Positions 2,345 through 31,345 of a stretch of 64,000 nt of DNA are shown one piece after another. A program made the translations under genes and the position numbers. The stretch is taken from the IMG/VR virus record IMGVR_UViG_3300017963_000189; one strand, 5' to 3'. Each line of letters starts with the position of its first letter. The stretch's first letter is position 1. The stretch comes from a virus (taxonomy: Duplodnaviria > Caudoviricetes). A model generated the notes under the pieces. It was given only the letters and a program-made list of their open reading frames with translations, was not told the origin of the DNA and searched no databases.

Positions 2345-3286
2345 CCTAATACAACTCGTCTTATATTTATCGCGTCAAATACGGGCTCGCCCGTGAGAAA
2401 ATATACATCGTCATAGTTGGCGAAACGATTATCATAATACTCAAGATTAAATAAAAATAAAGGTTTCTTCCAACTCAAAGCTTCCTTAACAACTAAAGGA
2501 TTACACTCCGCTATATTCGATGGAAATACAACAGCGTCACAGTGTGCGTAGTAATCGTCAACGTTATCTTTTTCGCCATGAATGAAACAATTCAATGGTT
2601 TATCCTCATAAAGGTTTCCAATAATCCTCAAAATTCTTGGCGTAATTTCCAACAAAATCAAATACTATTTTGTCCTTTATATTCTTGTCTAAATAACGCG
2701 CCAGTTCAAACGCATATCCTTGATTCTTATTTGGTGTAAATAACCCTACCACTAAGATATGCTTACAATTTCTCATTATATCTATATAGGGATACGGACG
2801 TTCTTCACCTACTTGTTCTTTTACTTCATATTCCACAATCTCTTTTGGTATATCTATAATGTTATATTGTTTCACTTGATACGGACTTACCATTACAAAT
2901 CTATCAGGATAAAACCTTTTCTTTTGTGGATTAAATTCAACCGTATGTGATGTTTCAAAAATCATAAATCGTCTACTATGATCATAAACGATTTCAGCAA
3001 TTTTATCATCCATAAAAAGTTCAGGTACTTCTTGTAAATGAATAATGTCAGGTTGTATTTGTTCTATATAAGATAATAACACTTCTTTATCATTATCAAG
3101 TGATAAGAAACTATCTCCAAGTAAATCTATTATTTTATTTCGTTGAACCACATAATGATCAGATAACTTTTCATATTCAACAATATAAATATCGTATGTA
3201 TCAACCAAAAGTTCTATTGTTCTCAATAGATATTGAGGCATTCCACCAGTTGAAAGATGTGGAACGATGTACATAACTTTTTTCAT
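2341..3286 (-). pseudogene. GT4 glycosyltransferase split by a frameshift (ORFs 2606-3286 and 2341-2661)
   Basis: N part PHLSTGGMPQYL...VGLFTPNKNQ ends WKPL*; C part in another frame has GEKDNVDDYY...FPSNIAECNPLVVKEALSWKKP. Confidence 0.65.
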
Positions 3287-3893: not shown

Positions 3894-3894
3894 G

Positions 3895-5207: not shown

Positions 5208-5890
5208 TATAATACCATCGCTTTCTCGTGACCTACTATTATACTTGGATCAACCATTATTTTCATTCCTTTTTCAATTACCGTTCTACAAAATCCCACA
5301 TCCTCACTCGTAAAGTCTGTCATAATAATTCCATTATCTAAAGGTATATCTTCCCATATAGGCTTAAACCAGGGATAACCAACTTTTTCAAATACACCTT
5401 TTCGTACTAACATAAAACCCATACCGGTATAGGCGACTTCAATTAATGTGTCTTTATCATATACTTTTAAATCGTCAACACTCATAAATTTGAATGTACC
5501 ACTTCTTTTAAAAAATTCCAAATCCCAATTTACAACTGTTGCGAAGTGTTTTTGATCTTCCATTCTATATAAACCAGATACTATATCAAGTTGTGGATAA
5601 CCCTCAAGTGTGGCGACTAACTTAAAAAATTGTTCAGGATTCCATACTATATCCGAATCAATCCACATCATGTAATCATAATCTACTTGACCTTGAAAAG
5701 GCTTTTGATCCTTACCTCTTAGATTGTCGCCCCCTAAACACATATTACGGGCATAATAAACAACACTACTATACTTGTTTATAACCTGAAACTCAATGCC
5801 TCGTCTCCATAATTGACCAAGAGTTTCACTCCAAGACATTAAAAACTTGTTCGAATATGTTCTCCCAGGTATTGCTAAAATTATTTTCAT
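5207..5890 (-). CDS. GT2-like glycosyltransferase
   Basis: YARN...YMMWIDSDIV (DxD), GMGFMLV, SEDVGFC, VGHEK. Confidence 0.75.
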   Translation of the reverse strand: MKIILAIPGRTYSNKFLMSWSETLGQLWRRGIEFQVINKYSSVVYYARNMCLGGDNLRGKDQKPFQGQVDYDYMMWIDSDIVWNPEQFFKLVATLEGYPQLDIVSGLYRMEDQKHFATVVNWDLEFFKRSGTFKFMSVDDLKVYDKDTLIEVAYTGMGFMLVRKGVFEKVGYPWFKPIWEDIPLDNGIIMTDFTSEDVGFCRTVIEKGMKIMVDPSIIVGHEKAMVL

Positions 5891-6153
5891 ACATTCACCG
5901 TTTTGTCCACTGATAAATGATATTCACCTTTGATACGATAACTCGGAAATAGACGAACAAAATCAAGTTTGATTTTTTGTTCAACATTATTTATAACAGA
6001 ATCATCTATATATGTTTTGTTTTCTTCCTTTTGATAATATCTTATCACTACAAACCAAGTATCATCTTGTTCCCAATAATGAATAATATCATGTTCAAAA
6101 TTTCCATACCAACTATCAATGGCTCGTTGTACGTCTACATTTTGTAACTTCAT
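5887..6153 (-). CDS. hypothetical protein
   Basis: Tiling ORF. Confidence 0.55.
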   Translation of the reverse strand: MKLQNVDVQRAIDSWYGNFEHDIIHYWEQDDTWFVVIRYYQKEENKTYIDDSVINNVEQKIKLDFVRLFPSYRIKGEYHLSVDKTVNV

Positions 6154-6380
6154 TTCTCTACCTCTTTTTTATATGTCGCCTGACACACTCGACAACGATA
6201 TACAATAGTATAATCAAGATACTGCCCATCGTCGTCCTCTTTAATCTCCAAACACTTCTCCGTATATAAGTGTTCCTCTTTACAATTATGCTCGCCAACA
6301 TATCGGGGACGCGGAACTACATCCACGTGCCCGATTGTTAACCCCAAATCCCTTAATTTCTTGTACTCTTTACTCAACAT
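6150..6380 (-). CDS. hypothetical protein (start probably MLSK)
   Basis: ATG overlaps the PNK stop; CRVC motif. Confidence 0.5.
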   Translation of the reverse strand: MLSKEYKKLRDLGLTIGHVDVVPRPRYVGEHNCKEEHLYTEKCLEIKEDDDGQYLDYTIVYRCRVCQATYKKEVEK

Positions 6381-7431
6381 AAATAACCTTATTGAACTCA
6401 CTCTTTAAAGATTGTTCACCTTTCTTGAATAATTTATATTGTTTACGGATAATTGATTCCGGTACAACTGATCTATCAACTCCATTTTCTATATCCTTGT
6501 TTACTCGTTCTAATGAAGTTTCTACATCAGATTCAAATACAACGGCTATCTTTTGCGCACCATTGAAATCAGCCATAAACTCAACTCTCAACCATTTATT
6601 TACATTGGTAGCATCCAAATACACTTTACCATATCTACGTAACGCGACTTTCATTCTTATTTTCGCGGTTGGCCAAACTTCAGCATTCATAGATTGATCG
6701 GAAACATCACCGGTCAACTCTCTACGAATATCGTCTGGCGAAACAATGTATTTTGGATCAACATTTTTTAAATAACGAGATTTACCTGAACCAGATATTC
6801 CAACCATTACATATACCTTTTTACTGGAATGTCTTTGTTTGAAATATACCCACTTTTCTTTGATAACGTTTTTCAACCTATCAGACCAATCGGATTCTTT
6901 CAAATATAATTGTTTGGATATAACCTTGTCAGCGGTAATAAAATCATCTAAATCGGGATCATCTTGTAACTTCTTGTGACCCGGATTCAAATCCATATGT
7001 TTATCAATCATACGATAAGTTAAATCATAATGTTTGATTCTATTTTTTATAGATTCTAAATACTTTATAGATTCTTTTGGATGTCCAAAAGCATATATAC
7101 GATCATTACCTACATTAGTCTTAGTTCCCTTACCATAATCATGTAAAAAAGCTGCTTCTAACAAATCAGGACGTTTTAATTTCCATACAGCCATTACTAC
7201 ATAATAAGTGTGATAAAAAGCATCAAACTCAGGGTGATGGTTCAAACCTTGTGGAACGCCCTCTAAAGCGTTTACAACCTTAGCGGTAATATCATATTCA
7301 CGTAACGCTCTTTTCCATTCCTCTATATAAGTAGCATTAGTAACAATTCTACGTTGTGGATATTCACGAACAATCGCCCGTGAACATAACCAAGTTTCAA
7401 CCAATATGTTTTTTAAACTTTGTTGTGCCAT
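6370..7431 (-). CDS. HD-domain / polynucleotide kinase fusion (RNA end healing)
   Basis: HHPEFDAFYHT...AAFLHDYGK (CCA-enzyme-like HD domain) followed by P-loop VGISGSGKS, SPDDIR, LDATN. Confidence 0.8.
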   Translation of the reverse strand: MAQQSLKNILVETWLCSRAIVREYPQRRIVTNATYIEEWKRALREYDITAKVVNALEGVPQGLNHHPEFDAFYHTYYVVMAVWKLKRPDLLEAAFLHDYGKGTKTNVGNDRIYAFGHPKESIKYLESIKNRIKHYDLTYRMIDKHMDLNPGHKKLQDDPDLDDFITADKVISKQLYLKESDWSDRLKNVIKEKWVYFKQRHSSKKVYVMVGISGSGKSRYLKNVDPKYIVSPDDIRRELTGDVSDQSMNAEVWPTAKIRMKVALRRYGKVYLDATNVNKWLRVEFMADFNGAQKIAVVFESDVETSLERVNKDIENGVDRSVVPESIIRKQYKLFKKGEQSLKSEFNKVIYVE

Positions 7432-7482: not shown

Positions 7483-8080
7483 GTGTTTTTTTCAATATTT
7501 TTTCCTTTTCTAATACCTTATGTAACGCTTGTAAAATAAACAACTCATACTCTTTTCCTGCTCTCGCATACATATGAGTAATAACATTCTTTGGATCAAA
7601 ACCCTTTCGATATGGGCGATCCTGCGTCATAGCATCATAAACATCAACTATCGCTAATATCTGGGCGAGCCCGTTGAACTCCGTTCCCTTTAAACCATTT
7701 GGATAACCTGTACCATTCAACTTCTCATGATGTTGCTCAACTATCTCAGCTTCAGCATCCATACCAAGTGACCGTAAAATCGTAGCACTGTCTGATGGAT
7801 GTTGTTTGATACTCTCATATTCTTCGCCAGTTAATTTACCGGGTTTAAATAAAATACCCTTTGGTATCTTGATTTTTCCCACATCATGATAATACGCTGC
7901 ACGTGTTACCAGGTTCGCGGTTTTCAAGTCTAAACCCAACTCTTGGGCGACCATCTTAACAATCCTACCAACCCTTAAAGAATGTTTTTGGGTATAATCA
8001 GAGTCCTCTACGGCTTTCAGAAGACTCATTGTGATTAATACCCTTTGATAGTCTATTTCAAATTTAGTGTCCTTTGCCAT
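7472..8080 (-). CDS. HD-GYP cyclic-dinucleotide phosphodiesterase (stand-alone)
   Basis: YTQKHSLRV, YHDVGKIKIP, IKQHP, QHHEKLNGTGYPNGL, DVYDAMTQDRPYR. Confidence 0.9.
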   Translation of the reverse strand: MAKDTKFEIDYQRVLITMSLLKAVEDSDYTQKHSLRVGRIVKMVAQELGLDLKTANLVTRAAYYHDVGKIKIPKGILFKPGKLTGEEYESIKQHPSDSATILRSLGMDAEAEIVEQHHEKLNGTGYPNGLKGTEFNGLAQILAIVDVYDAMTQDRPYRKGFDPKNVITHMYARAGKEYELFILQALHKVLEKEKILKKTLDI

Positions 8081-9260
8081 TTATTTTCTCTACCAATAAA
8101 TTTTTTATTCGTTTTAATCCCTTTTGTTCGTACAATCCATGTATTACATCTATCGCCTTTAATTCAGGTTTATCTACCATAGTGAAAATAAATCCAACTC
8201 GATCACGTTTGATTTTATCTTGTATCTCTAACGCTAACTCTTTACGAGACATTTCAGGCGCTCTTTTTCTATAATACTCACCCTCTTTAGATAAATATTC
8301 AATCAATTCAAAATACCTTTTTTTCAACAACTTATATTCTTCTTTTACGGAATCAGGTAACTTGTCCAAATATACTTCAAATTCTTCTTCCTCGTTGTCC
8401 AATAAAACACCTACCAAGTTGTTAGTCACACCCTCGCCAGTAGCTACATGGTGTAAATGAACATACTTTGGCGACTTAACTTTTACTCGACCAACTACTA
8501 AATCATCTTTGAACTGAACAACTATAAATCCCTCAAATCCATTTCCCTTTTCATTCTCTTTATCAGCAATTTCAGATAATTCGGAAACATCCTTAACATC
8601 TTTCAAATCAAACAATCTTGGAAAACGTATAGAATATCCCTTGAACATCTTTTCGTATTTCTTCTTTATGGATTTATGGAATATATTAAAGTCACGTAAT
8701 TCACCATCGTTTTCTTTTAAACCAATGAAAACTAACTCTTTTACGCCTTCATAATCAACTACTATTTGATTTGATGGATGTACCAACTCAAACATATAAG
8801 TCAAATTTGGCGAAAATTCCGCAGTTAACTTTTCAAAATCTTCTTTAGAAACTACATCAAAGAAAATCTTGGAAAAAGAAATTCCATCCATATTAGACGC
8901 ATCATCAGCATCAATAGTTCCATTAGTTGCTACTCTCCATTCACCATCATAAAAATATACTTTTATAATAGAACCATCTACCTTTTCAACTACATAAGAA
9001 TCATCTAATATCAAATTGTAAGCATATATTTCACCGTAGTTGAAAAACTTATCAAATGGATGCGCAACTATATTCCAAGTTCCCTTTTCTAATATGATAC
9101 CACGAGATTCTTTTACAATCTTGTTAGAGAAATCGGAATTAAACTGATTATACTTGAATATAACTAAGTTATCCTTAGCATTAATATGCAAGTTGAACGG
9201 GTCTTTACGTAAATCATCTAAAGACCGTATTTTCAATATTTTTTGTAAGTTCAATTTCAC
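8064..9260 (-). CDS. RNA ligase (T4 Rnl1-like)
   Basis: ESRGIIL, PFDKFFN, motif I EKVDGS, FELV, EGFIV, RVKVK. Confidence 0.88.
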   Translation of the reverse strand: MKLNLQKILKIRSLDDLRKDPFNLHINAKDNLVIFKYNQFNSDFSNKIVKESRGIILEKGTWNIVAHPFDKFFNYGEIYAYNLILDDSYVVEKVDGSIIKVYFYDGEWRVATNGTIDADDASNMDGISFSKIFFDVVSKEDFEKLTAEFSPNLTYMFELVHPSNQIVVDYEGVKELVFIGLKENDGELRDFNIFHKSIKKKYEKMFKGYSIRFPRLFDLKDVKDVSELSEIADKENEKGNGFEGFIVVQFKDDLVVGRVKVKSPKYVHLHHVATGEGVTNNLVGVLLDNEEEEFEVYLDKLPDSVKEEYKLLKKRYFELIEYLSKEGEYYRKRAPEMSRKELALEIQDKIKRDRVGFIFTMVDKPELKAIDVIHGLYEQKGLKRIKNLLVEKINGKGH

Positions 9261-12039: not shown

Positions 12040-12426
12040 TTATTTATTTCCAAAATTACTTCTTACATCCCACTCTTTAAGCATATGTGGGAAAGATTTT
12101 AAATATTTACCATTTTCATCATATGGTTCATATGATTCATTTTCAATAAGTTTGATCGGCTTTCCGAGTACAAACGCAGCTCCCATATCAAAATGACTAC
12201 CAGTTGAAGTTGAATCAAAAAAGATATGAATTTCATCAGCCCATTTTATTGCTTCTACATTTTCATCACAAATACCTATACTCGTATTATCTTGATTTGT
12301 ATGTATGTGGGGCAAATGAACTTCATGACCATCACAAATTAACTTTTTTGTATATGATTCTAACTTTTCTCTTACTTCGTCTGTCGCCTCACGAACACTA
12401 CATATAATATAAATCTTTTTACCCAT
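12040..12426 (-). CDS. nucleoside 2-deoxyribosyltransferase-like / nucleotide N-hydrolase
   Basis: IYII...VHLPH...AIKWADEIHIFFD.TSTGSHFDMGAAFVLGKPI. Confidence 0.6.
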   Translation of the reverse strand: MGKKIYIICSVREATDEVREKLESYTKKLICDGHEVHLPHIHTNQDNTSIGICDENVEAIKWADEIHIFFDSTSTGSHFDMGAAFVLGKPIKLIENESYEPYDENGKYLKSFPHMLKEWDVRSNFGNK

Positions 12427-12715
12427 CTTCCCCTCTTTCTAAAACCTTTGCGGTCTTTGTATCTTTTTGTATATAATGTTGCCGAAAAAACTTCATTTCA
12501 CCAATTAACTGCGACAACAATAAAATAATCTTGTATAATCCCAAGGCGAAAATACCATAAAGAGCAAACTCAAATGCTCTATATGCTAACCATAGACCAT
12601 TTTCGCCAAATACCTCAAGACCAAGTGTAATCAAAAGTAAAACCGCCATGGCTATAAAACAAGCCGTACTAAAACCTTTGATTACACTATTTTCATCAAT
12701 TCCATACATAAACAC
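12419..12715 (-). CDS. hypothetical membrane protein
   Basis: Two TM segments. Confidence 0.55.
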   Translation of the reverse strand: MFMYGIDENSVIKGFSTACFIAMAVLLLITLGLEVFGENGLWLAYRAFEFALYGIFALGLYKIILLLSQLIGEMKFFRQHYIQKDTKTAKVLERGEDG

Positions 12716-12726
12716 CCCTTTTCTTT

Positions 12727-12903
12727 TTATCTTTTAGTTAATTTCCCTACGGGCTTTTCAACTACTTTACCATCTTCCATTACGATACGAACTTTCATCT
12801 TTTCATTTGTAGTGTCAATACTTTGACATACAATAGCACTTTCCATACGAATCTTACCTTGAATACTTACCTTATCACCACAACTAAAAGACATTCTTTT
12901 CAT
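12727..12903 (-). CDS. small hypothetical protein (58 aa, not in ORF track)
   Basis: MKRMSFSCGDKVSIQGK...KLTKR*, GGAG SD, promoter upstream. Confidence 0.55.
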   Translation of the reverse strand: MKRMSFSCGDKVSIQGKIRMESAIVCQSIDTTNEKMKVRIVMEDGKVVEKPVGKLTKR

Positions 12904-12933
12904 GTAAATCTCCTTGTTTTTATATGTTTAGTA

Positions 12934-12962
12934 AATCTACGAAATAAAACCGTATTTGTCAA
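12934..12962 (-). promoter_or_regulatory. sigma70-type promoter (variant)
   Basis: TTGACA-N17-TAGATT. Confidence 0.6.
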
Positions 12963-12970
12963 AGGCTTTT

Positions 12971-13435
12971 TTAAAAAAACTTATTTTTTCTTTCTTCCTC
13001 TACTTTTATTTCCTCTCGCAACTCCATTAAAAGTTTTCCTAACATATTATAGCCCGCTCCATCTTCATTTCTACCCCAAAAATAATCTGTTTTACTGTAC
13101 TCAACTATTTCTGCATTTCCGGTAGACAATAAAAGATTTCTCATACGATCTATCTTTTTGAATTTCGCCACAAGGGCTCGCCTCATAACTAATAACTTTA
13201 CTTCATTCCAATCACTTCTCAAAGGTAAATCGTCTCTACGACCCTCATGTGCAGCACCACCTGGCTTATCTTGATTTCGTATGTATTCTTCCCATTCAGT
13301 GCCTTCATATTTCTTAGATTGATAATAGTGTTCTGTACTTTTATAATCTCGACCATCAATAGTAATCGTTATAGGATAAAAATTACTAAACTCTCCAAAA
13401 GGCTCTTTAAGTTTCCTGAATATTATTTGTTTCAT
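12971..13435 (-). CDS. NADAR (YbiA/DUF1768) family protein
   Basis: FSNFY, STEHYYQSKK, RSDWNEVK..VM..AL.AKF, E.S..D.FWG, NMLGKLLMELR. Confidence 0.88.
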   Translation of the reverse strand: MKQIIFRKLKEPFGEFSNFYPITITIDGRDYKSTEHYYQSKKYEGTEWEEYIRNQDKPGGAAHEGRRDDLPLRSDWNEVKLLVMRRALVAKFKKIDRMRNLLLSTGNAEIVEYSKTDYFWGRNEDGAGYNMLGKLLMELREEIKVEEERKNKFF

Positions 13436-13646
13436 CTGGAAATCTCGTTTTCTCCATTGTGTCTATAAAATCTAAAAGTTGTTTCTTTACATCTTCATTG
13501 TTGTTACTATGTGAAATGTTCCAACGAGCACTTGTTAACAACATCCTTGCTTTAGTGTCGCTGGAACTTCCCACTTGATACGCGAACTTTAACATATAAT
13601 ATGAAATTTTTATAAAATTCATCCATGTTTTTATTTTTTTCACCAT
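13407..13646 (-). CDS. hypothetical protein
   Basis: Tiling ORF. Confidence 0.5.
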   Translation of the reverse strand: MVKKIKTWMNFIKISYYMLKFAYQVGSSSDTKARMLLTSARWNISHSNNNEDVKKQLLDFIDTMEKTRFPDETNNIQET

Positions 13647-14347
13647 CGTAGCGGTTTCCTTTTATTATAGATTTTCCGTATTTGTTCCTTTATCTTTACT
13701 ATGTTCCAATCAATATCATTTCCAATTCCATCTTCAATTTCATAATCTATATGATCAAGTTCATCTAAACAAACGAACTCACATCCCAAAAGGTTGTCCA
13801 CTCTTGACATATGCCAGTGACCATAAAACCAAATTTTAGGTTTATGAATCTCAAACATTTGATTCAATGCTGTAGAAGTTCTATTTCCTGTACCATCGTT
13901 TATGAACTCTTTCTTAAAGATTTGTTCAATTCCGATTCTCGGACATTCGTGTGTCAGCATTATATCGGGCTTGACTCTTTCATAATCCGCAATAGCATCC
14001 ATCAACTCGTTATAGGACAGTTGCTCTTCTTCCCACCAGGAGACGCCAGGGATACGCCAAGACCAATCTATTGACCAGGCTCCCCTGACAAAGAAGAATT
14101 TAAATCCATTGAACTCAACTTCACCATAACCTTTCCCAAAAGTATATTGTTCTCTTAGGCCTTTGTAATCGTCGTGATTACCTGGAATAATTTTATGGTT
14201 ATATGGATTTACCTTATTAGTAACAAGTGAATACCAATGTTTGGCGAAGCCGAAGTCACCTAATTGAATAGAATATTCTGCATCTTTTATTCTTTCCAAA
14301 TAGGCGTGAAATTTTCCATGTACATCGCCTATTAATCTAATTTTCAT
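13640..14347 (-). CDS. calcineurin-like metallophosphoesterase
   Basis: GDVHG, GDFG, GNHD, THECP, GHWH. Confidence 0.85.
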   Translation of the reverse strand: MKIRLIGDVHGKFHAYLERIKDAEYSIQLGDFGFAKHWYSLVTNKVNPYNHKIIPGNHDDYKGLREQYTFGKGYGEVEFNGFKFFFVRGAWSIDWSWRIPGVSWWEEEQLSYNELMDAIADYERVKPDIMLTHECPRIGIEQIFKKEFINDGTGNRTSTALNQMFEIHKPKIWFYGHWHMSRVDNLLGCEFVCLDELDHIDYEIEDGIGNDIDWNIVKIKEQIRKIYNKRKPLRW

Positions 14348-14550: not shown

Positions 14551-15219
14551 TTAAGATAATAATTCTAATAATCCATTTATTATTGTTTCTTTATTTTTAC
14601 GATAATCTTTTTCCCAAATAACAATAACGTTAAATCCCATTGATTCTAATAGTTGTTTTTTTTCTTTATCATATTTCCATATTTCTTTTGCTTTAATTTT
14701 CTTTTTGTTTTTTGTTATCAAATGATTTTTATCATATACATTTGGATTAGCATGCCAGTAATCTCCATTATATTCTACAATTATATTTTTGTTAGGTACA
14801 AATATATCTACAAAATACTTTTCAATATGTTTTTGTTTTTCAACTTGTATTTTATTTTTTGTTAATATATTTATTATTTCTATTTCAGCTTTTGATGATC
14901 TTCCTTTTTGCCAACGAACATCTGAATTGTTCCATATCATTGATTTTTTCATTTTATCATAAAAATTTTTATCTTTCCATTTTTCTTTAAGAGTTTTACT
15001 TATAGAGTTTTTGTGTTCTTGACTTAACTTTTTTCCTATCTTTGCATTTGTTATATTTTTTTTGTGAGATTCGGTTTTTGATTTTCCGGATAACGCATTA
15101 GATAGATTCTTTTTATGTTCTTCTGAAAAGGGTTTTTTGTTTTTTTGACTACGTTGCATTTTTTCTCTATATTCCGGATCGGCCCATAACCTTTTCATTT
15201 TTTCAGATCTTGATTCCAT
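14551..15219 (-). mobile_element. free-standing homing-type endonuclease (NUMOD3 repeats plus DUF559/Vsr-like nuclease)
   Basis: SEEHKKNLS/ESHKKNIT/SQEHKNSIS repeats; VDIF...IIVEYNGDYWH...VIVIWE; visibly more AT-rich than flanks. Confidence 0.7.
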
Positions 15220-15283
15220 ATAATTTTCCCCTTTATAATAAATATAAAGGTTTTCATTTTTTTAATAACCTCTTAAAAAAGTA

Positions 15284-15480
15284 ATTATTTCCTGTAGCCA
15301 GGATTCTGTCGTTTAAGATAGTCATTTATCTTTATGTGGCCTCAACCTTGCTATTATCGACCCGCTCACCGTCTAAGCTATTTTGAGTTGCATCCTCAGT
15401 GGTACAAACGACTTTCGTCTCCCATCTTAAGCAGCGATGTCCTGAGCTTCCTCTCCGTAGAGCGACTATCCAGAAATAAT
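15284..15480 (-). ncRNA. rnpB: RNase P RNA, minimal (~197 nt)
   Basis: P1 ATTATTTCTG/CAGGAAATAAT; P2 GATAGTC/GACTATC; P3 CTCT-ACGG-AGAG; CR-I GAGGAAGCTCAGG pairs with CR-V ACAGAATCCTGGCTAC (P4 with bulged U); CR-II-like TGCAACTCAAAA; CR-IV AGATAAATGAC. Confidence 0.85.
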
Positions 15481-15986
15481 TACTCTTTTGGTATTTCTAC
15501 ATTGACCATATCAAAACTATAATACTCTCTATAATATGTGTCAAGGATTAATTTCTTCACATCATAATTATGATGATTTATATCATACAAAGTTTCTACA
15601 TAAACTCCAGGTGTTTTCTTGTCTATATTCAATATCTCCGACAACGCCAGAGCGACAGCAGGCGACCGTGACAAACCTGCCTCACAATGAATCATAAAGT
15701 TTTTGTGTTTTTTATTTTTCAATCCAAACTCAATGATTTTTCGAGCATCACTATCATCAATTTGTTTTGGTTTAACTACCTCATAAAATGATGAAATTGT
15801 ACCGTCTGCCCGTTCATCATGAAATCGAAGATACAAAACATCTTTCATAAGTGGATTTTTCACCACTTCATATTGTGGATGTTCCGGCGACACTATTGAT
15901 ATACAACTAAATGGTACATCAATTTTGCTCATAAAACCTTGATCAGTAGCCATAGCTACATTGACTACAATAAATCTTATATTCAT
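15480..15986 (-). CDS. protein-tyrosine / dual-specificity phosphatase-like
   Basis: LRFHD and IHCEAGLSRSPAVALA (CX5R). Confidence 0.8.
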   Translation of the reverse strand: MNIRFIVVNVAMATDQGFMSKIDVPFSCISIVSPEHPQYEVVKNPLMKDVLYLRFHDERADGTISSFYEVVKPKQIDDSDARKIIEFGLKNKKHKNFMIHCEAGLSRSPAVALALSEILNIDKKTPGVYVETLYDINHHNYDVKKLILDTYYREYYSFDMVNVEIPKE

Positions 15987-16158
15987 ACACAACCTTTTAT
16001 TTATGTTTTAATCTATAATCTATATCTTTTAAAATAAAATATGTCACACTCTTTTTAACTACGTGATGTAACGCGACTAAAAATCCTACAAGTGCTAATC
16101 CAACAAGAATTGTTCCAAACATTGCTAATAATCCTTTCGTTCATTTATGTGTTTCTAT

Positions 16159-16645: not shown

Positions 16646-16663
16646 TGTATTTCTCCGGTTTAG

Positions 16664-16747
16664 CGGAAGATAAAGGGATTGAACCTTTGATCCCAAAGGG
16701 AAGCCTCGGTTTTCGAAACCGGCACATTACCACTCTGTCAATCTTCC
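16664..16747 (-). tRNA. tRNA-Ser (CGA)
   Basis: GGAAGAT/ATCTTCC, G73, CGGT-TT-CGA-AA-ACCG, long variable arm. Confidence 0.9.
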
Positions 16748-16803
16748 ATATAGTCATTGACTTCTATTCGCCTCATTATCAATGACCTTTTCTCGTTTGA
16801 GTG

Positions 16804-16887
16804 CGGAGAGTATAGGGATTGAACCTATGCAGGGAAACCCCGGCCTCCGCTTTCCAAGCGGGCACATTACCACTCTGTCAACTCTCC
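16804..16887 (-). tRNA. tRNA-Ser (GGA)
   Basis: GGAGAGT/ACTCTCC, G73, CCGC-TT-GGA-AA-GCGG, long variable arm. Confidence 0.92.
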
Positions 16888-16893
16888 AATATT

Positions 16894-17202
16894 TTATTTC
16901 AACATCAAACGGTACGGATGTGTTTTTTGGTTTAAAGTGACTACTCTTTTTGTAGTACAAAAATCATTGATCAATGGAATATGAGTATTGATTAAATCCA
17001 ATAAATGATTCGCTTGTGTCATTGTATCAAACATTATTTTGATTTCTTCAAGACCAATTTCATATCCTCTAAATCCCGGCAAATCAGCATGAAAAACTTT
17101 TCTTATTTTTTCATATTGTGTATTATGAGCATCCGTCCATTCTGATATATCGTGTGTAGTCAGCCACGTATCAACACTTATTTTTACTATTACACCTATC
17201 AT
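16894..17202 (-). CDS. hypothetical protein
   Basis: 102-aa ORF with GGAG SD. Confidence 0.55.
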   Translation of the reverse strand: MIGVIVKISVDTWLTTHDISEWTDAHNTQYEKIRKVFHADLPGFRGYEIGLEEIKIMFDTMTQANHLLDLINTHIPLINDFCTTKRVVTLNQKTHPYRLMLK

Positions 17203-17333
17203 TTAATTTCTCCTGTATAGGTTTATATTTTATGTGTGACCTTATTCACTTAACATAATATATAACGTTGCCATACCGGAAATTATAAACACTCCAAGAA
17301 TTCCGCCTACCACTAATGATAATATTATTTCCA

Positions 17334-17624
17334 TTAAGCGTGATTTGTTTTCATCCTTTCAATTTCAACTTCCAATGAATTATCATTTCGTAATTCAACA
17401 TCATTTTTAATTTGTGGCATTTTCTCTTTTTTGTCCGAAACTGCTTCTATATAATCACCAATCATTTTATCCATCGCGTCACTATTATCCATAAGTGGAG
17501 TTTCACCTTCAATTTCCACCGTAACAGTTTCATATTTATCTTTTTTACCAAAAGCCTTTTCCCAATTATCCACATATTCATCATATGTAACATTCATCGG
17601 TCTCGGTTTATCACCTTTACTCAT
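17334..17624 (-). CDS. hypothetical protein
   Basis: Tiling ORF. Confidence 0.55.
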   Translation of the reverse strand: MSKGDKPRPMNVTYDEYVDNWEKAFGKKDKYETVTVEIEGETPLMDNSDAMDKMIGDYIEAVSDKKEKMPQIKNDVELRNDNSLEVEIERMKTNHA

Positions 17625-17826
17625 TGTTTAACCTCTTTTCATTCTTATTCATTAACATTGTTGGTTTACTATAATCTGCTGGTTCGGAATATGAATATAC
17701 CATTTCACATTCACAATAACCACAAATCGGAATATCGCTATCTTCGGCGACAACCCTAACATATTTCCTACCATAATTTTTATAATGTTTACAACCTACA
17801 TATTCACATAAAAATATATCACTCAA
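17617..17826 (-). CDS. small Zn-finger-like protein
   Basis: CEYVGC...CGYCEC. Confidence 0.55.
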   Translation of the reverse strand: MSDIFLCEYVGCKHYKNYGRKYVRVVAEDSDIPICGYCECEMVYSYSEPADYSKPTMLMNKNEKRLNNE

Positions 17827-17860
17827 TAAACCTCTCCATATTTACATATAAATATATAAG

Positions 17861-18088
17861 TTATTTTGTTTCCTCTTTTTTTCCAAAATACTTTTTCAAT
17901 ATAAGATGAAATACAAATAATGATATCGGAAACGCTAAAATATTACTCAATAAATCGGTATTTATTTTACTCGTATCTCCACCAAGAGCAAAAACTAATA
18001 AACCTATAATAAATCCCGCTCCAAAAGCAAATACAATATATCTCCATACAAACGACCACCAAACTTCCAATGTCTTTCCAAATTCCAT
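17861..18088 (-). CDS. hypothetical membrane protein
   Basis: Two TM segments. Confidence 0.6.
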   Translation of the reverse strand: MEFGKTLEVWWSFVWRYIVFAFGAGFIIGLLVFALGGDTSKINTDLLSNILAFPISLFVFHLILKKYFGKKEETK

Positions 18089-18098
18089 AACTTTCTCC

Positions 18099-18518
18099 TT
18101 AGTTTAAATACCACATATACCAACTAAATACATTTAATAATAAAAAGGCGACCCACAAAATGACTTGTGACCATACTTTCTTTTTTATCGCCCAATAAAT
18201 CCAAAAAAAGTTTGATACTATCCATACTGGCCAACACCATATCACTTTTAATCCACATAATACAATCCCTATAAGTGAAAATGTAGTAGCAATACGACCT
18301 ATAATAGTTAACTTTTTCTTTTCTTTACCTTCCCAATCAAACTCTTTTAGGTTTACATTTCCTATCTTTACAGGATCAACTTTTTTAGTTTTCCCTACAG
18401 CCTTTTCTATTGTTTTTTTCGCTTGTGTTGCTGCGGCTTTATTCTTTTCTTCCTCAATTATTGGATCAAATGTTTTATCAAGTTCTTGTGTAAAATCATC
18501 TAAATTATCATCTGCCAT
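18099..18518 (-). CDS. membrane protein with short PnuC-like C-terminal domain
   Basis: TTFSLIGIVL...K.IWCWPVWIVSNFFW...K..WSQ.IL...F....SWYMW resembles short phage PnuC-like proteins. Confidence 0.45.
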   Translation of the reverse strand: MADDNLDDFTQELDKTFDPIIEEEKNKAAATQAKKTIEKAVGKTKKVDPVKIGNVNLKEFDWEGKEKKKLTIIGRIATTFSLIGIVLCGLKVIWCWPVWIVSNFFWIYWAIKKKVWSQVILWVAFLLLNVFSWYMWYLN

Positions 18519-18552
18519 ATAACCCCCTTGCGTTGATTTGTACATAACTAAG

Positions 18553-18638
18553 CGGAAGATGTAGGATTCGAACCCACGCTACCAAAGGTAGACCTCGGTT
18601 TTCAAAACCGGTGCATTACCAGACTCTGCCAATCTTCC
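18553..18638 (-). tRNA. tRNA-Ser (TGA)
   Basis: GGAAGAT/ATCTTCC, G73, CGGT-TT-TGA-AA-ACCG, TTCGAAT. Confidence 0.92.
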
Positions 18639-18720
18639 AAAGTGGCGGGAGTTTAAAAACATCAACTCTTGATCACCACCTACTCCCGCTTAGTATGATG
18701 AATAGACCTGATGCTATGAG

Positions 18721-18806
18721 CGGAGAGTACAGGATTCGAACCTGTGTGTCCAAAGGACAACCTCCGGGTAGCAACCGGGTACATTACCTGACTCTGTCAA
18801 CTCTCC
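18721..18806 (-). tRNA. tRNA-Ser (GCT)
   Basis: GGAGAGT/ACTCTCC, G73, CCGG-TT-GCT-AC-CCGG, TTCGAAT. Confidence 0.92.
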
Positions 18807-19413: not shown

Positions 19414-19438
19414 TTACTTTCTCCACATAATAAATTTG

Positions 19439-19528
19439 AGTCGGTGACAGGATTTGAACCTGCGACAGGGTTTCCCCTTTTGCTGGTTTTGCAGACCAGC
19501 CCCTTAGACCAGACTCGGGCACACCGAC
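19439..19528 (-). tRNA. tRNA-Cys (GCA) with long variable arm
   Basis: GTCGGTG/CACCGAC, U73, CTGGT-CT-GCA-AA-ACCAG, variable arm AGGG-GAAA-CCCT, T arm GCAGG-TTCAAAT-CCTGT. Confidence 0.85.
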
Positions 19529-30141: not shown

Positions 30142-30170
30142 AATATACAAAATTAAGTTCACTTTGTCAA
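30142..30170 (-). promoter_or_regulatory. sigma70-type promoter (repeat family); its TGA is the pncB stop
   Basis: GAAAACAG-TTGACA-N17-TATATT. Confidence 0.85.
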
Positions 30171-31345
30171 CTGTTTTCTATAATTCTTTTCGCTAAATCT
30201 ATCATTTCAGGATCACCGGTGTGTTTTCCCTCAACATCACTCAACTTGATTGTCGGTATCCATTTTTTACCTTGTGGTTTAGCAGAAACCATCTTGATAA
30301 CAATATTCAATGGAGTAACATCAGGAATATCATTAGAAAGATTAGTTCCCATTCCATATGAAATTTTAATTCTACCATGTCCAAAATGACTATTTATTCT
30401 TTCAATTTCCTTTGGATTCAACCCATCGGAGAATACAATCGTTTTAGTTCTTGGATCAATACCAAGTTTCTTGTAATGTTCAATAGCTCTTTTTCCAAAC
30501 TCAATAGGATCACCAGAATCGTGTCTAACACCATCAAATAATTTAGCATACATTGTGTCAAACGATCCAAAAAAATTCTTTGTGGTGAAAGTGTCCGTGA
30601 GTGCTATACCCAACTCTCCATTATAAACATCGACCCAACGACCAAGAGCAACAGCGTTTGCTTGATGAAAACCATATTTCGCAGCGTGAAACATAAACCA
30701 TTCATGAGCTTGTGTTCCAATAGGTTTTATTCCATACTTACGAGCTAAGTGGACATTACTTGTACCAACAAAATGATTTGATTTACTAAATGTTCTAACC
30801 ATTCTACTTTGACTCTTGTAAGAATGTCGCCGTCTTGTTCCAAAATCGGCTAAACTTATAGTAGGTACTAAATCAAATAAGAAATCTCTTTTTGATTCAT
30901 TATGATTTTCTATATCTCCCCAATGTACATTACCAATACCTTTACCGGTATGAATGAAATAAAGTTCTGAAATCAAAGCCATAAGCGGAACTTCCCATAA
31001 GATTGTTCTATACCATAATCCCTCAATCTCTACTGAAAGTTCACCATCATTCCAAAAAATCTTTATTTCATCAGCGTTATAGCGATAACCTTTCAGGAAA
31101 TCTATATAAACAGGATCAAAGAAATAAAGGTTTTCTCTCAAATAATCTTCCTCACCATCGGTAAGAAAAAGTTTTTCCATATCCCAAACCATGTCGCCCA
31201 AATCCTTAGCAACTGCTTCAGGAATGTAAGTTTTCCCACGATTGAAAAACTTATACTTTACTTCGGCACGCGGGTACAACTTCGTAACTGCGTTCTGCAT
31301 TGTAAACTTATATAAATCATTGTCTAAAATAGATTTGATTAACAT
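30167..31345 (-). CDS. pncB: nicotinate phosphoribosyltransferase
   Basis: ILDNDLYKFTM, DFGTRRR, GTSNV, GTQAHEWFM, RHDSGDP, FSDGL, GMGTNL, KLSD..GKHTG. Confidence 0.93.
   Translation of the reverse strand: MLIKSILDNDLYKFTMQNAVTKLYPRAEVKYKFFNRGKTYIPEAVAKDLGDMVWDMEKLFLTDGEEDYLRENLYFFDPVYIDFLKGYRYNADEIKIFWNDGELSVEIEGLWYRTILWEVPLMALISELYFIHTGKGIGNVHWGDIENHNESKRDFLFDLVPTISLADFGTRRRHSYKSQSRMVRTFSKSNHFVGTSNVHLARKYGIKPIGTQAHEWFMFHAAKYGFHQANAVALGRWVDVYNGELGIALTDTFTTKNFFGSFDTMYAKLFDGVRHDSGDPIEFGKRAIEHYKKLGIDPRTKTIVFSDGLNPKEIERINSHFGHGRIKISYGMGTNLSNDIPDVTPLNIVIKMVSAKPQGKKWIPTIKLSDVEGKHTGDPEMIDLAKRIIENS

Follow-up and report, generated by a model that had tools for sequence, protein, structure and literature searches.

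Can a virus encode the RNA subunit of RNase P? The question is raised by a gap between two minus-strand genes in a 64,000-nucleotide (nt) stretch of DNA from a tailed phage (Duplodnaviria; Caudoviricetes; IMG/VR record IMGVR_UViG_3300017963_000189), the whole of which is referred to here as the window. RNase P RNA, one of two universal ribozymes, has to our knowledge hitherto been treated as a strictly cellular gene. The gap, which is flanked by an open reading frame (ORF) that ends at 15480 and another that starts at 15219, was read in a first-pass annotation as a minimal phage-encoded RNase P RNA of ~197 nt at 15284–15480. The present analysis supports the view that the element is a conserved RNA with the architecture and core nucleotides of an RNase P catalytic domain, encoded by a structured RNA gene on the minus strand at 15275–15489 (215 nt; core 15285–15478), and we assign a probability of roughly 75% to the reading that it is a working ribozyme which, with the RnpA protein of the host, would remove 5′ leaders from phage precursor tRNAs (pre-tRNAs). 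The motif strings quoted in the annotation are all present on the minus strand, including P4 with its bulged U, AGAUAAAUG, and ACAGAA, as are the P1, P2, and short P3 that it had claimed; its extent had to be revised, since P1 runs further than first stated (20 base pairs (bp), with one bulged G). The ordered combination of core motifs occurs once in the 64-kb window and in 0 of 100 dinucleotide shuffles. The G+C content is 33% for the window and 41% for the element. Folding of the single sequence gives unexceptional energies on both strands (z = −1.3 and −1.2); the evidence is comparative rather than thermodynamic.

In the numbering of the fold, index 1 is window position 15478 and counting proceeds downwards; pair statistics are based on alignment A3, which holds 52 sequences. 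The 5′ strand of P1 (15471–15489) pairs with its 3′ strand at 15275–15294, and double changes are seen in 8 of 8 tested pairs of this helix (core indices 1–8 with 185–193). P2 is an 8-bp helix between GAUAGUCG (15463–15470) and UGACUAUC (15317–15324; indices 9–16 with 155–162), with double changes in six of its eight pairs and 91.5% of cells paired. It is followed by P3, a 3-bp hairpin with a UACG loop (15453–15462; indices 17–19 with 24–26), in which the closing C-G is invariant and the other pairs covary. The segment GAGGAAGCUCAGG (15441–15453) comprises CR-I (J3-4) and the 5′ strand of P4; its AGC-U-CAGG pairs with CCUGGCU at 15302–15296, leaving U15445 (U34) bulged (indices 31–33 and 35–38 with 177–183). 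P4 is a long-range helix that crosses P2, as it does in all RNase P RNAs, where P4 with its bulged U is the metal-binding active-site helix. The P5 5′ strand, CAUC (15436–15439), pairs with 15391–15394 (indices 40–43 with 85–88), 99% of cells being paired and all four pairs showing double changes.

Between the two P5 strands lies a vestigial specificity domain of 41 nt (15395–15435), both helices of which covary: a P7-like helix of 5 bp (15422–15426 with 15398–15402; indices 53–57 with 77–81) and a GAAA-capped 3-bp hairpin (15410–15419; indices 60–62 with 67–69). The naming of these helices after P7, P8, and P9 is tentative. When the window RNA was tested for a specificity domain, no P10–P14 and neither CR-II nor CR-III, the T-loop motifs of that domain that read the tRNA elbow, were found. 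The first-pass view that most of the domain is gone thus holds, apart from the remaining stem-loop, but the “CR-II-like” UGCAACUCAAAA named there is not CR-II; it consists of the P5 3′ strand, the 3-nt J5/15, and the P15 5′ strand. J5/7 also carries the 5′ strand of the P6 pseudoknot (15430–15434), which pairs with 15362–15366 in the P17 loop (indices 45–49 with 113–117).

The P5 3′ strand and the J5/15 linker together read GAUG-CAA (15388–15394), with the 3-nt CAA at indices 89–91. The adenosines of this linker sit where E. coli has A248/A249, and GCAA is invariant in alignments A1 and A4; the E. coli J5/15 adenosines contact substrate nucleotide −1. The P15-P16-P17 arm (15341–15387) contains P15 (15384–15387 with 15341–15344; indices 92–95 with 135–138), P16 (15376–15378 with 15350–15352; indices 101–103 with 127–129), the P17 hairpin (15359–15373; indices 106–108 with 118–120), and the GGU of loop L15 (15345–15347; indices 132–134), embedded in AAGGU in the window and in CGGGU in most relatives. 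This GGU is the element that pairs with tRNA 3′-CCA. CR-IV, AGAUAAAUG (15323–15331; indices 148–156), is located directly 5′ of the P2 3′ strand in a J15/2 that replaces J18/2, and CR-V with the P4 3′ strand is formed by ACAGAAUCCUGGCUA (15295–15309), its ACAGAA lying at 15309–15304 (indices 170–175). P18 with its GNRA loop is absent from the window copy, in which P15 and CR-IV are joined by 16 nt; longer relatives, e.g., L002, L003, and L009, have a P18-like hairpin, AAGUC-GAAA-GACUU. No helix or conserved joining region of the catalytic domain is missing from the window RNA. CR-I, CR-IV, and CR-V also form the RnpA-binding surface, and in the T. maritima and E. coli enzymes the retained parts are those of the active site, the acceptor-end contacts, and RnpA binding.

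The element belongs to a family. A blastn search against GenBank phages gave partial matches only in the uncultured genomes LR756502 (642 kb) and LR756501/3 (735 kb), and P1–P4 of the LR756502 and LR756501 copies differ from those of the window by compensatory changes, as judged by eye; the same search with the longer relative L008 gave no match. Three motif scans of IMG/VR yielded 66 loci with ~52 distinct copies, many of them on contigs of 300–500 kb, one locus (L028) being a false positive. The nearest relative of the window copy (83% identity over 119 nt) lies on L060, a complete 405-kb phage contig. Model R1, a covariance model of 16 copies, uses a hand-drawn nested structure from which P4 and P6 are absent; it scores all copies at 64–190 bits and finds exactly one copy in each of four large genomes and two in a fifth. 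For a second model (R2), 18 copies without that of the window were used with a structure predicted by RNAalifold, which recovered P2, P5, the P7-like helix, the hairpin, P15, P16, and P17 unaided; R2 matches the window at 15285–15478 (−) with 149 bits (E = 8e-44). A copy is also present in the cultured Stenotrophomonas phage DLP6 (KU682439.2, 105777–106016; 86 bits, E = 5e-19), inside a tRNA array, where it occupies an unannotated gap between a hypothetical coding sequence and tRNA-Arg; RNase P is unmentioned in the DLP6 paper.

Two further members are of interest in their own right. In L024, a complete 488-kb phage with direct repeats at its termini, the gene is present as two diverged copies ~300 nt apart (1884–2062 and 2376–2616, minus strand) beside 21 tRNA genes, one of the copies being only 179 nt long. 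A phage-type copy (167 bits) in a 10-tRNA array is found on the 13-kb contig JBBAEW010000057.1 (L087), filed in a metagenome-assembled genome (MAG) bin labeled “Saccharofermentanales”; the contig is probably a phage fragment in that bin.

The proposed pairing was evaluated by covariation. Standard pairs occupy 92.0% of cells. Shuffling lowers this to 64.5%, with none of 500 shuffles as high as the observed figure, and sliding the partners by 1–3 columns lowers it to 32–50%; changes on both sides are seen in 44 of 53 pairs. The nested helices were fitted by the alignment model, a bias in their favor. P4 and P6 stand outside that model: all seven P4 pairs are formed in 50 of 50 sequences, the three innermost showing double changes with as many as five standard pair types (the four Watson-Crick types and G-U), and P6 is paired in 91% of cells with double changes in 5 of 5 pairs. 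Compensatory changes in P1, P2, and P4, which the first-pass annotation had named as a check on its proposal, are abundant across the homologues.

The tie to RNase P was established along several lines. When aligned segment by segment with annotated E. coli rnpB, the window RNA has the elements of rnpB in matching order and at matching spacing, and the core strings are nearly identical. In CR-I and the P4 5′ strand, E. coli GAGGAAAGUCCGG (nt 61–73) is matched by GAGGAAGCUCAGG in the window, which fits the GAGGAAAGUCC-like RNase P consensus. Across the P5 3′ strand, J5/15, and P15, E. coli GGAGCAAGGCCAAAUAG aligns with GGAUGCAACUCAAAAUAG; the succession of CAUC/GAUG, CAA, and P15 has GGAGCAAGGCC as its E. 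coli counterpart. The L15 GGU with the P15 3′ strand reads GGGUAGGCU in E. coli (nt 291–299) and AAGGUUGAGGC in the window. From CR-IV to CR-V, AGAUGAAUGACUGUC..ACGACAGAACCCGGCUUA corresponds to AGAUAAAUGACUAUC..ACGACAGAAUCCUGGCUA, CR-IV itself being AGAUGAAUG (nt 328–336) in E. coli and AGAUAAAUG in the window, and CR-V with the P4 3′ strand being ACAGAACCCGGCUUA (nt 347–361) and ACAGAAUCCUGGCUA, respectively, with a window CR-V that fits the ACAGAA...GGCUUA-like consensus. The best match of model R1 in the E. coli rnpB locus (1 kb, filters off) is likewise the CR-IV/CR-V end, although the score is low (7.7 bits, E = 0.023 in 2 kb).

Established models and genomes provide the second line. Under permissive filters, three homologues match the Rfam model RNaseP_arch (RF00373) over its full length (model positions 1–288), all below its gathering score of 84: L053 (32.9 bits, E = 1.6e-6), L001 (32.4 bits, E = 2.4e-6), and L067 (25 bits, E = 5e-4). 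L001 is the LR756502 copy that blastn ties to the window; in its alignment to RNaseP_arch, P1, P2, P3, GAGGAA, P5, GCAA, P15, CR-IV, and CR-V match and the specificity domain is skipped. The core pattern of the family, run over 185,579 prokaryote species with one genome each, gave 7 matches. Three of these are DPANN-type archaeal RNAs that lie above the RNaseP_arch gathering score (95–100 bits) and that R2 scores at 29–35 bits (E = 1e-7 to 1e-9); one is L087, the phage-type copy in a tRNA array noted above; the remaining three, L081, L083, and L086 (8–17 bits), are probable chance matches to the pattern only.

Among known RNase P RNAs, the phage RNA closely resembles type A (RF00010; E. coli M1 RNA, encoded by rnpB, 377 nt), with which it shares the order and pairing of P1–P6 and P15–P17, a P2 of 7–8 bp, a 3-nt J5/15, the L15 GGU, and near-identical CR-I, CR-IV, and CR-V; larger phage members add a P18-like GNRA hairpin, and two carrier phages add a bacterial-type RnpA. 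It differs in its length (215 nt versus ~350–400 nt), in the 41-nt stem-loop that replaces P8–P14 with CR-II and CR-III, in the lack of P18 and of detection by RF00010 in the window copy, and in being virus-encoded. Archaeal type T RNA of the Thermoproteaceae (RF02357) is also a natural RNA of ~200 nt with an intact catalytic domain and a mostly deleted specificity domain, and it too escaped older covariance models (PMC3579882). However, type T has a 3-bp P2, a 2-nt P5/P15 linker, and a shortened P15 (PMC3579882) and has archaeal protein partners, whereas the phage RNA has an 8-bp P2, a 3-nt linker, and P16, P17, and P6. A closest relationship to type T was rejected on the lengths of P2 and of the linker (PMC3579882), and no match to RF02357 was reported in the Rfam searches of the window or of family members; the two look like independent reductions. 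The 7–8-bp P2, the 3-nt J5/15, the presence of P6, P16, and P17, the P18-like hairpin of longer members, and the bacterial RnpA genes instead point to derivation of the family from bacterial type-A RNase P RNA.

Reduced RNase P RNAs are also found in Candidate Phyla Radiation bacteria, where P12, P13, P14, and P18 are lacking (PMC8172020). Like the phage RNA, these RNAs and those of DPANN archaea are short, lie below or near Rfam thresholds, and have the same universal core; unlike it, they keep CR-II/CR-III-like elements and are the only RNase P RNA of a cell rather than an accessory viral gene. In DPANN (Micrarchaeota-type) MAGs, RNase P RNAs of 206–220 nt that exceed the Rfam gathering score (L082 7303–7522, L084 486–691, and L085 5975–6181) seem to keep CR-II/CR-III-like elements while their P15-P17 arm is almost gone, a reduction opposite to that of the phage RNA. 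The stable RNAs rnaC and rnaD of the T4 tRNA cluster were considered as degenerate relatives and rejected, R1 with filters off giving no match. A further parallel in composition is an engineered one: the E. coli catalytic-domain RNA (Eco CP RPR) has essentially the same parts list (PMC5839562). It is a laboratory construct of reduced efficiency, whereas the phage RNA is a natural conserved gene with a covarying stump of the specificity domain. The E. coli catalytic domain alone cleaves substrates, and its efficiency needs a P6-like contact and not P18 (PMC5839562); because the window RNA keeps P6 and lacks P18, as this active domain does, its activity is feasible.

In terms of genomic context, the gene is associated with tRNA genes. 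A tRNA gene is present in 40 of 53 loci, the nearest always on the strand of the element. The distance to this nearest gene is at most 100 nt for 18 loci, at most 500 nt for 25, and at most 2 kb for 33. The window has seven tRNA genes, at 3894, 10703, 16663, 16803, 18552, 18720, and 19438, all on the minus strand with the element. All seven have U at −1, the nucleotide that bacterial RNase P prefers at this position.

Some of these tRNAs are unusual. The gene at 19438–19528 (−), adjoining four tRNA-Ser isoacceptors (16663–18806), specifies a 91-nt class-II tRNA with a long variable arm, a Leu/Ser/Tyr-like D arm, and the Cys anticodon GCA; it may be mis-assigned or recoding. CUA-anticodon tRNAs (amber suppressors) lie near the ribozyme gene in L003 (1739–1810), L017 (11265–11338), L049 (8568–8641), L057 (5497–5648), and L064 (9933–10005), which hints at TAG recoding in related huge phages. 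In L004, a group I intron (5812–6025; Rfam, 64 bits) directly follows a tRNA-Tyr gene, ~190 nt upstream of the ribozyme gene.

Of ten large carrier genomes, two have a gene for RnpA (PF00825): LR756502 (52 bits) and a 476-kb IMG/VR genome (49 bits). These proteins are mutually related, with FAVSSKKFKRAVDRNR(V/I)KRLM as a common motif. Small RnpA genes (~99–122 amino acids) with an intact RNR motif were located at L070 1435–1803 (LR756502.1, 525189–525473) and L074 1498–1797 (−), and the phages concerned are candidates for complete viral RNase P holoenzymes.

Features upstream and downstream of the element bear on its expression. A promoter-like site, TTGACA, 17 nt, TATAGT, is visible at 15516–15544 (−), ~27 nt upstream of P1 and within the 3′ end of the upstream ORF; it matches the consensus at 11 of 12 positions, although by consensus match the region has no more sites of this kind than expected from shuffling. 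Just upstream of the element in several relatives, TAnnTTTG motifs were noted by eye, which we take to be a Bacteroidota-type promoter motif. The P1 3′ strand ends with a run of six U (15280–15275), a possible transcript end; no canonical terminator hairpin was found at the 3′ end of the element. Together, the promoter-like site and the six U suggest a separate transcription unit.

Beyond the observed architecture, conservation, family, and genomic association, how the RNA is transcribed, which protein it works with, what it catalyzes, and how the phage benefits are inferred as follows. A promoter of its own would drive transcription of the RNA, in a region with genes for tRNAs, an RNA ligase, and a polynucleotide kinase. 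The RNA would fold into the catalytic core and would bind the RnpA of the host, with some related phages bringing their own. The complex of RNA and RnpA would then cleave 5′ leaders off phage pre-tRNAs, and the effect would be to maintain or increase tRNA maturation during infection. Substrates would be read via the acceptor stem, nucleotide −1, the leader, and the 3′ end, dispensing with the T-loop/D-loop contact of the missing domain. We favor this working-ribozyme reading because the parts list of the window RNA matches that of the active E. coli catalytic domain (PMC5839562).

Several observations weigh against it. Rfam searches of the window at gathering thresholds, and of 15180–15560 (381 nt) at E ≤ 10, gave no RNase P match, nor did those of the longer relative L008; RF00010 finds nothing at the element in three large related genomes, no family member reaches an Rfam gathering score, and R1 run over the whole E. 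coli chromosome leaves rnpB unmatched. The covariance-model check suggested in the first-pass annotation thus failed for the window copy, but at the level of the family this miss is offset by the three full-length matches to RF00373, themselves below its gathering score. The IMG/VR scan patterns fixed GAGGAAG, TC, AAAUG, ACAGRA, and RCUA, so that ascertainment accounts in part for the lack of variation at these letters, at the bulged U, and in the three outer P4 pairs; the inner P4 pairs and all other helices were free to vary. The nearest tRNA gene in the window is 1.2 kb from the element, further than in many relatives, and none of the seven window tRNA genes encodes 3′ CCA, so the retained GGU can act only after CCA addition. 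As to the protein, rnpA was not found in eight of the ten large carrier genomes, six of which are rated 95–100% complete. The window, as the annotation had noted, yielded none either, in a phmmer search with phage RnpA against 422 open frames of at least 50 amino acids and in a search for the RNR motif, both of limited sensitivity in a window that is a fragment. The protein partner is therefore assumed to be that of the host. The public runs that carry the stretch are two DNA runs, from sediment and seawater metagenomes, with no RNA run among them.

The same protein data bear on a quite unlikely alternative, in which the RNA is a decoy or sponge whose RNase P fold captures host RnpA, or competes with host M1 RNA, and so disturbs host tRNA maturation without processing the phage tRNAs. 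The retained P2-P3, CR-IV, CR-V, and P15 are generally regarded as the protein-binding face, most carrier genomes are without their own rnpA, and loss of the specificity domain would weaken tRNA binding, all of which would suit a decoy. Such an RNA would have little use, however, for the chemistry positions that are kept throughout the family (the bulged U, the P4 geometry, the J5/15 adenosines, the GGU, and P6), it would not be expected within the phage's own tRNA arrays, and the supply of RnpA by two of the phages would make little sense for a sponge. An active ribozyme with a different main substrate, such as tRNA-like folds in mRNAs of the phage or the host, precursors of tmRNA, or the spacers of long tRNA-array transcripts, is another alternative that we consider unlikely. 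Without the domain that reads the T-loop, the choice of substrate should relax. Catalytic-domain constructs do cleave simple hairpins (PMC5839562), and tmRNA genes lie near the element in L043, L052, and L064, but the association is with same-strand tRNA genes, the window tRNAs carry the canonical U(−1), and no alternative conserved target was seen.

Finally, the element could be what is left of a host rnpB that was captured and is now decaying, or its likeness to RNase P could be fortuitous and the structured RNA unrelated. The lack of an Rfam match for the window copy and the unexceptional folding energy are what a relic or a chance likeness would give. This explanation is largely refuted by covariation, ~52 diverged copies holding 12 helices by compensatory change, and it also has to contend with a single-copy gene in complete phage genomes of 357–490 kb, with ordered core motifs that retrieve certified RNase P RNAs, and with full-length Rfam matches down to E = 1e-6; we regard it as highly improbable.

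The genes around the element are encoded on the minus strand as well. Directly upstream is a Cys-phosphatase-like ORF (15483–15992), the stop codon of which (15482–15480) is overlapped by the P1 5′ strand and hence lies inside P1, and directly downstream is a DUF559/MTES_1575 endonuclease-like ORF (14554–15219); a metallophosphatase is encoded at 13643–14347. A T4 Rnl1-like RNA ligase (8067–9260; 180 bits to phrog_562) and a polynucleotide-kinase-like protein (6373–7431) make up a T4-style tRNA-repair set. Taken with the tRNA genes, these two characterize the region as one of RNA and tRNA handling. A separate cluster (12043–13435, 18102–18545, and 30170–31345, minus strand) is related to nicotinamide adenine dinucleotide and comprises NADAR, nucleoside deoxyribosyltransferase-like, nicotinamide mononucleotide-transporter-like, and nicotinamide phosphoribosyltransferase (NAMPT) genes.

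A full-text literature search, with subscription journals outside its coverage, found nothing published on an RNase P RNA gene in a phage or other virus, and published Rfam scans of megaphage genomes list tRNAs and a tmRNA only (PMC8172020). In the window RNA a known ribozyme takes a new structural form, in a type of genome that is new for it. The family as a whole probably represents an undescribed and widespread class of viral RNase P ribozymes, the first viral ones and the smallest natural ones of bacterial type, which would act on phage pre-tRNAs with host RnpA or, in some huge phages, with their own. The family escapes current Rfam models and calls for one of its own. The dozens of natural minimal bacterial-type RNAs of ~180–240 nt would allow a direct test of the contributions of the specificity domain, P18, and P6, and the cultured DLP6 copy together with the two phage rnpA genes makes the question testable at the bench.

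If the proposal is correct, large phages carry their own tRNA-maturation enzyme beside their tRNAs, an RNase P free of the specificity domain has repeatedly been found sufficient in nature, and the RNA together with phage-encoded RnpA in some huge phages constitutes a complete viral RNase P holoenzyme. A conserved viral RNase P RNA would explain conserved unannotated gaps in phage tRNA arrays, and it would add tRNA 5′ maturation to a large-phage toolkit of tRNAs, tmRNA, and tRNA repair.

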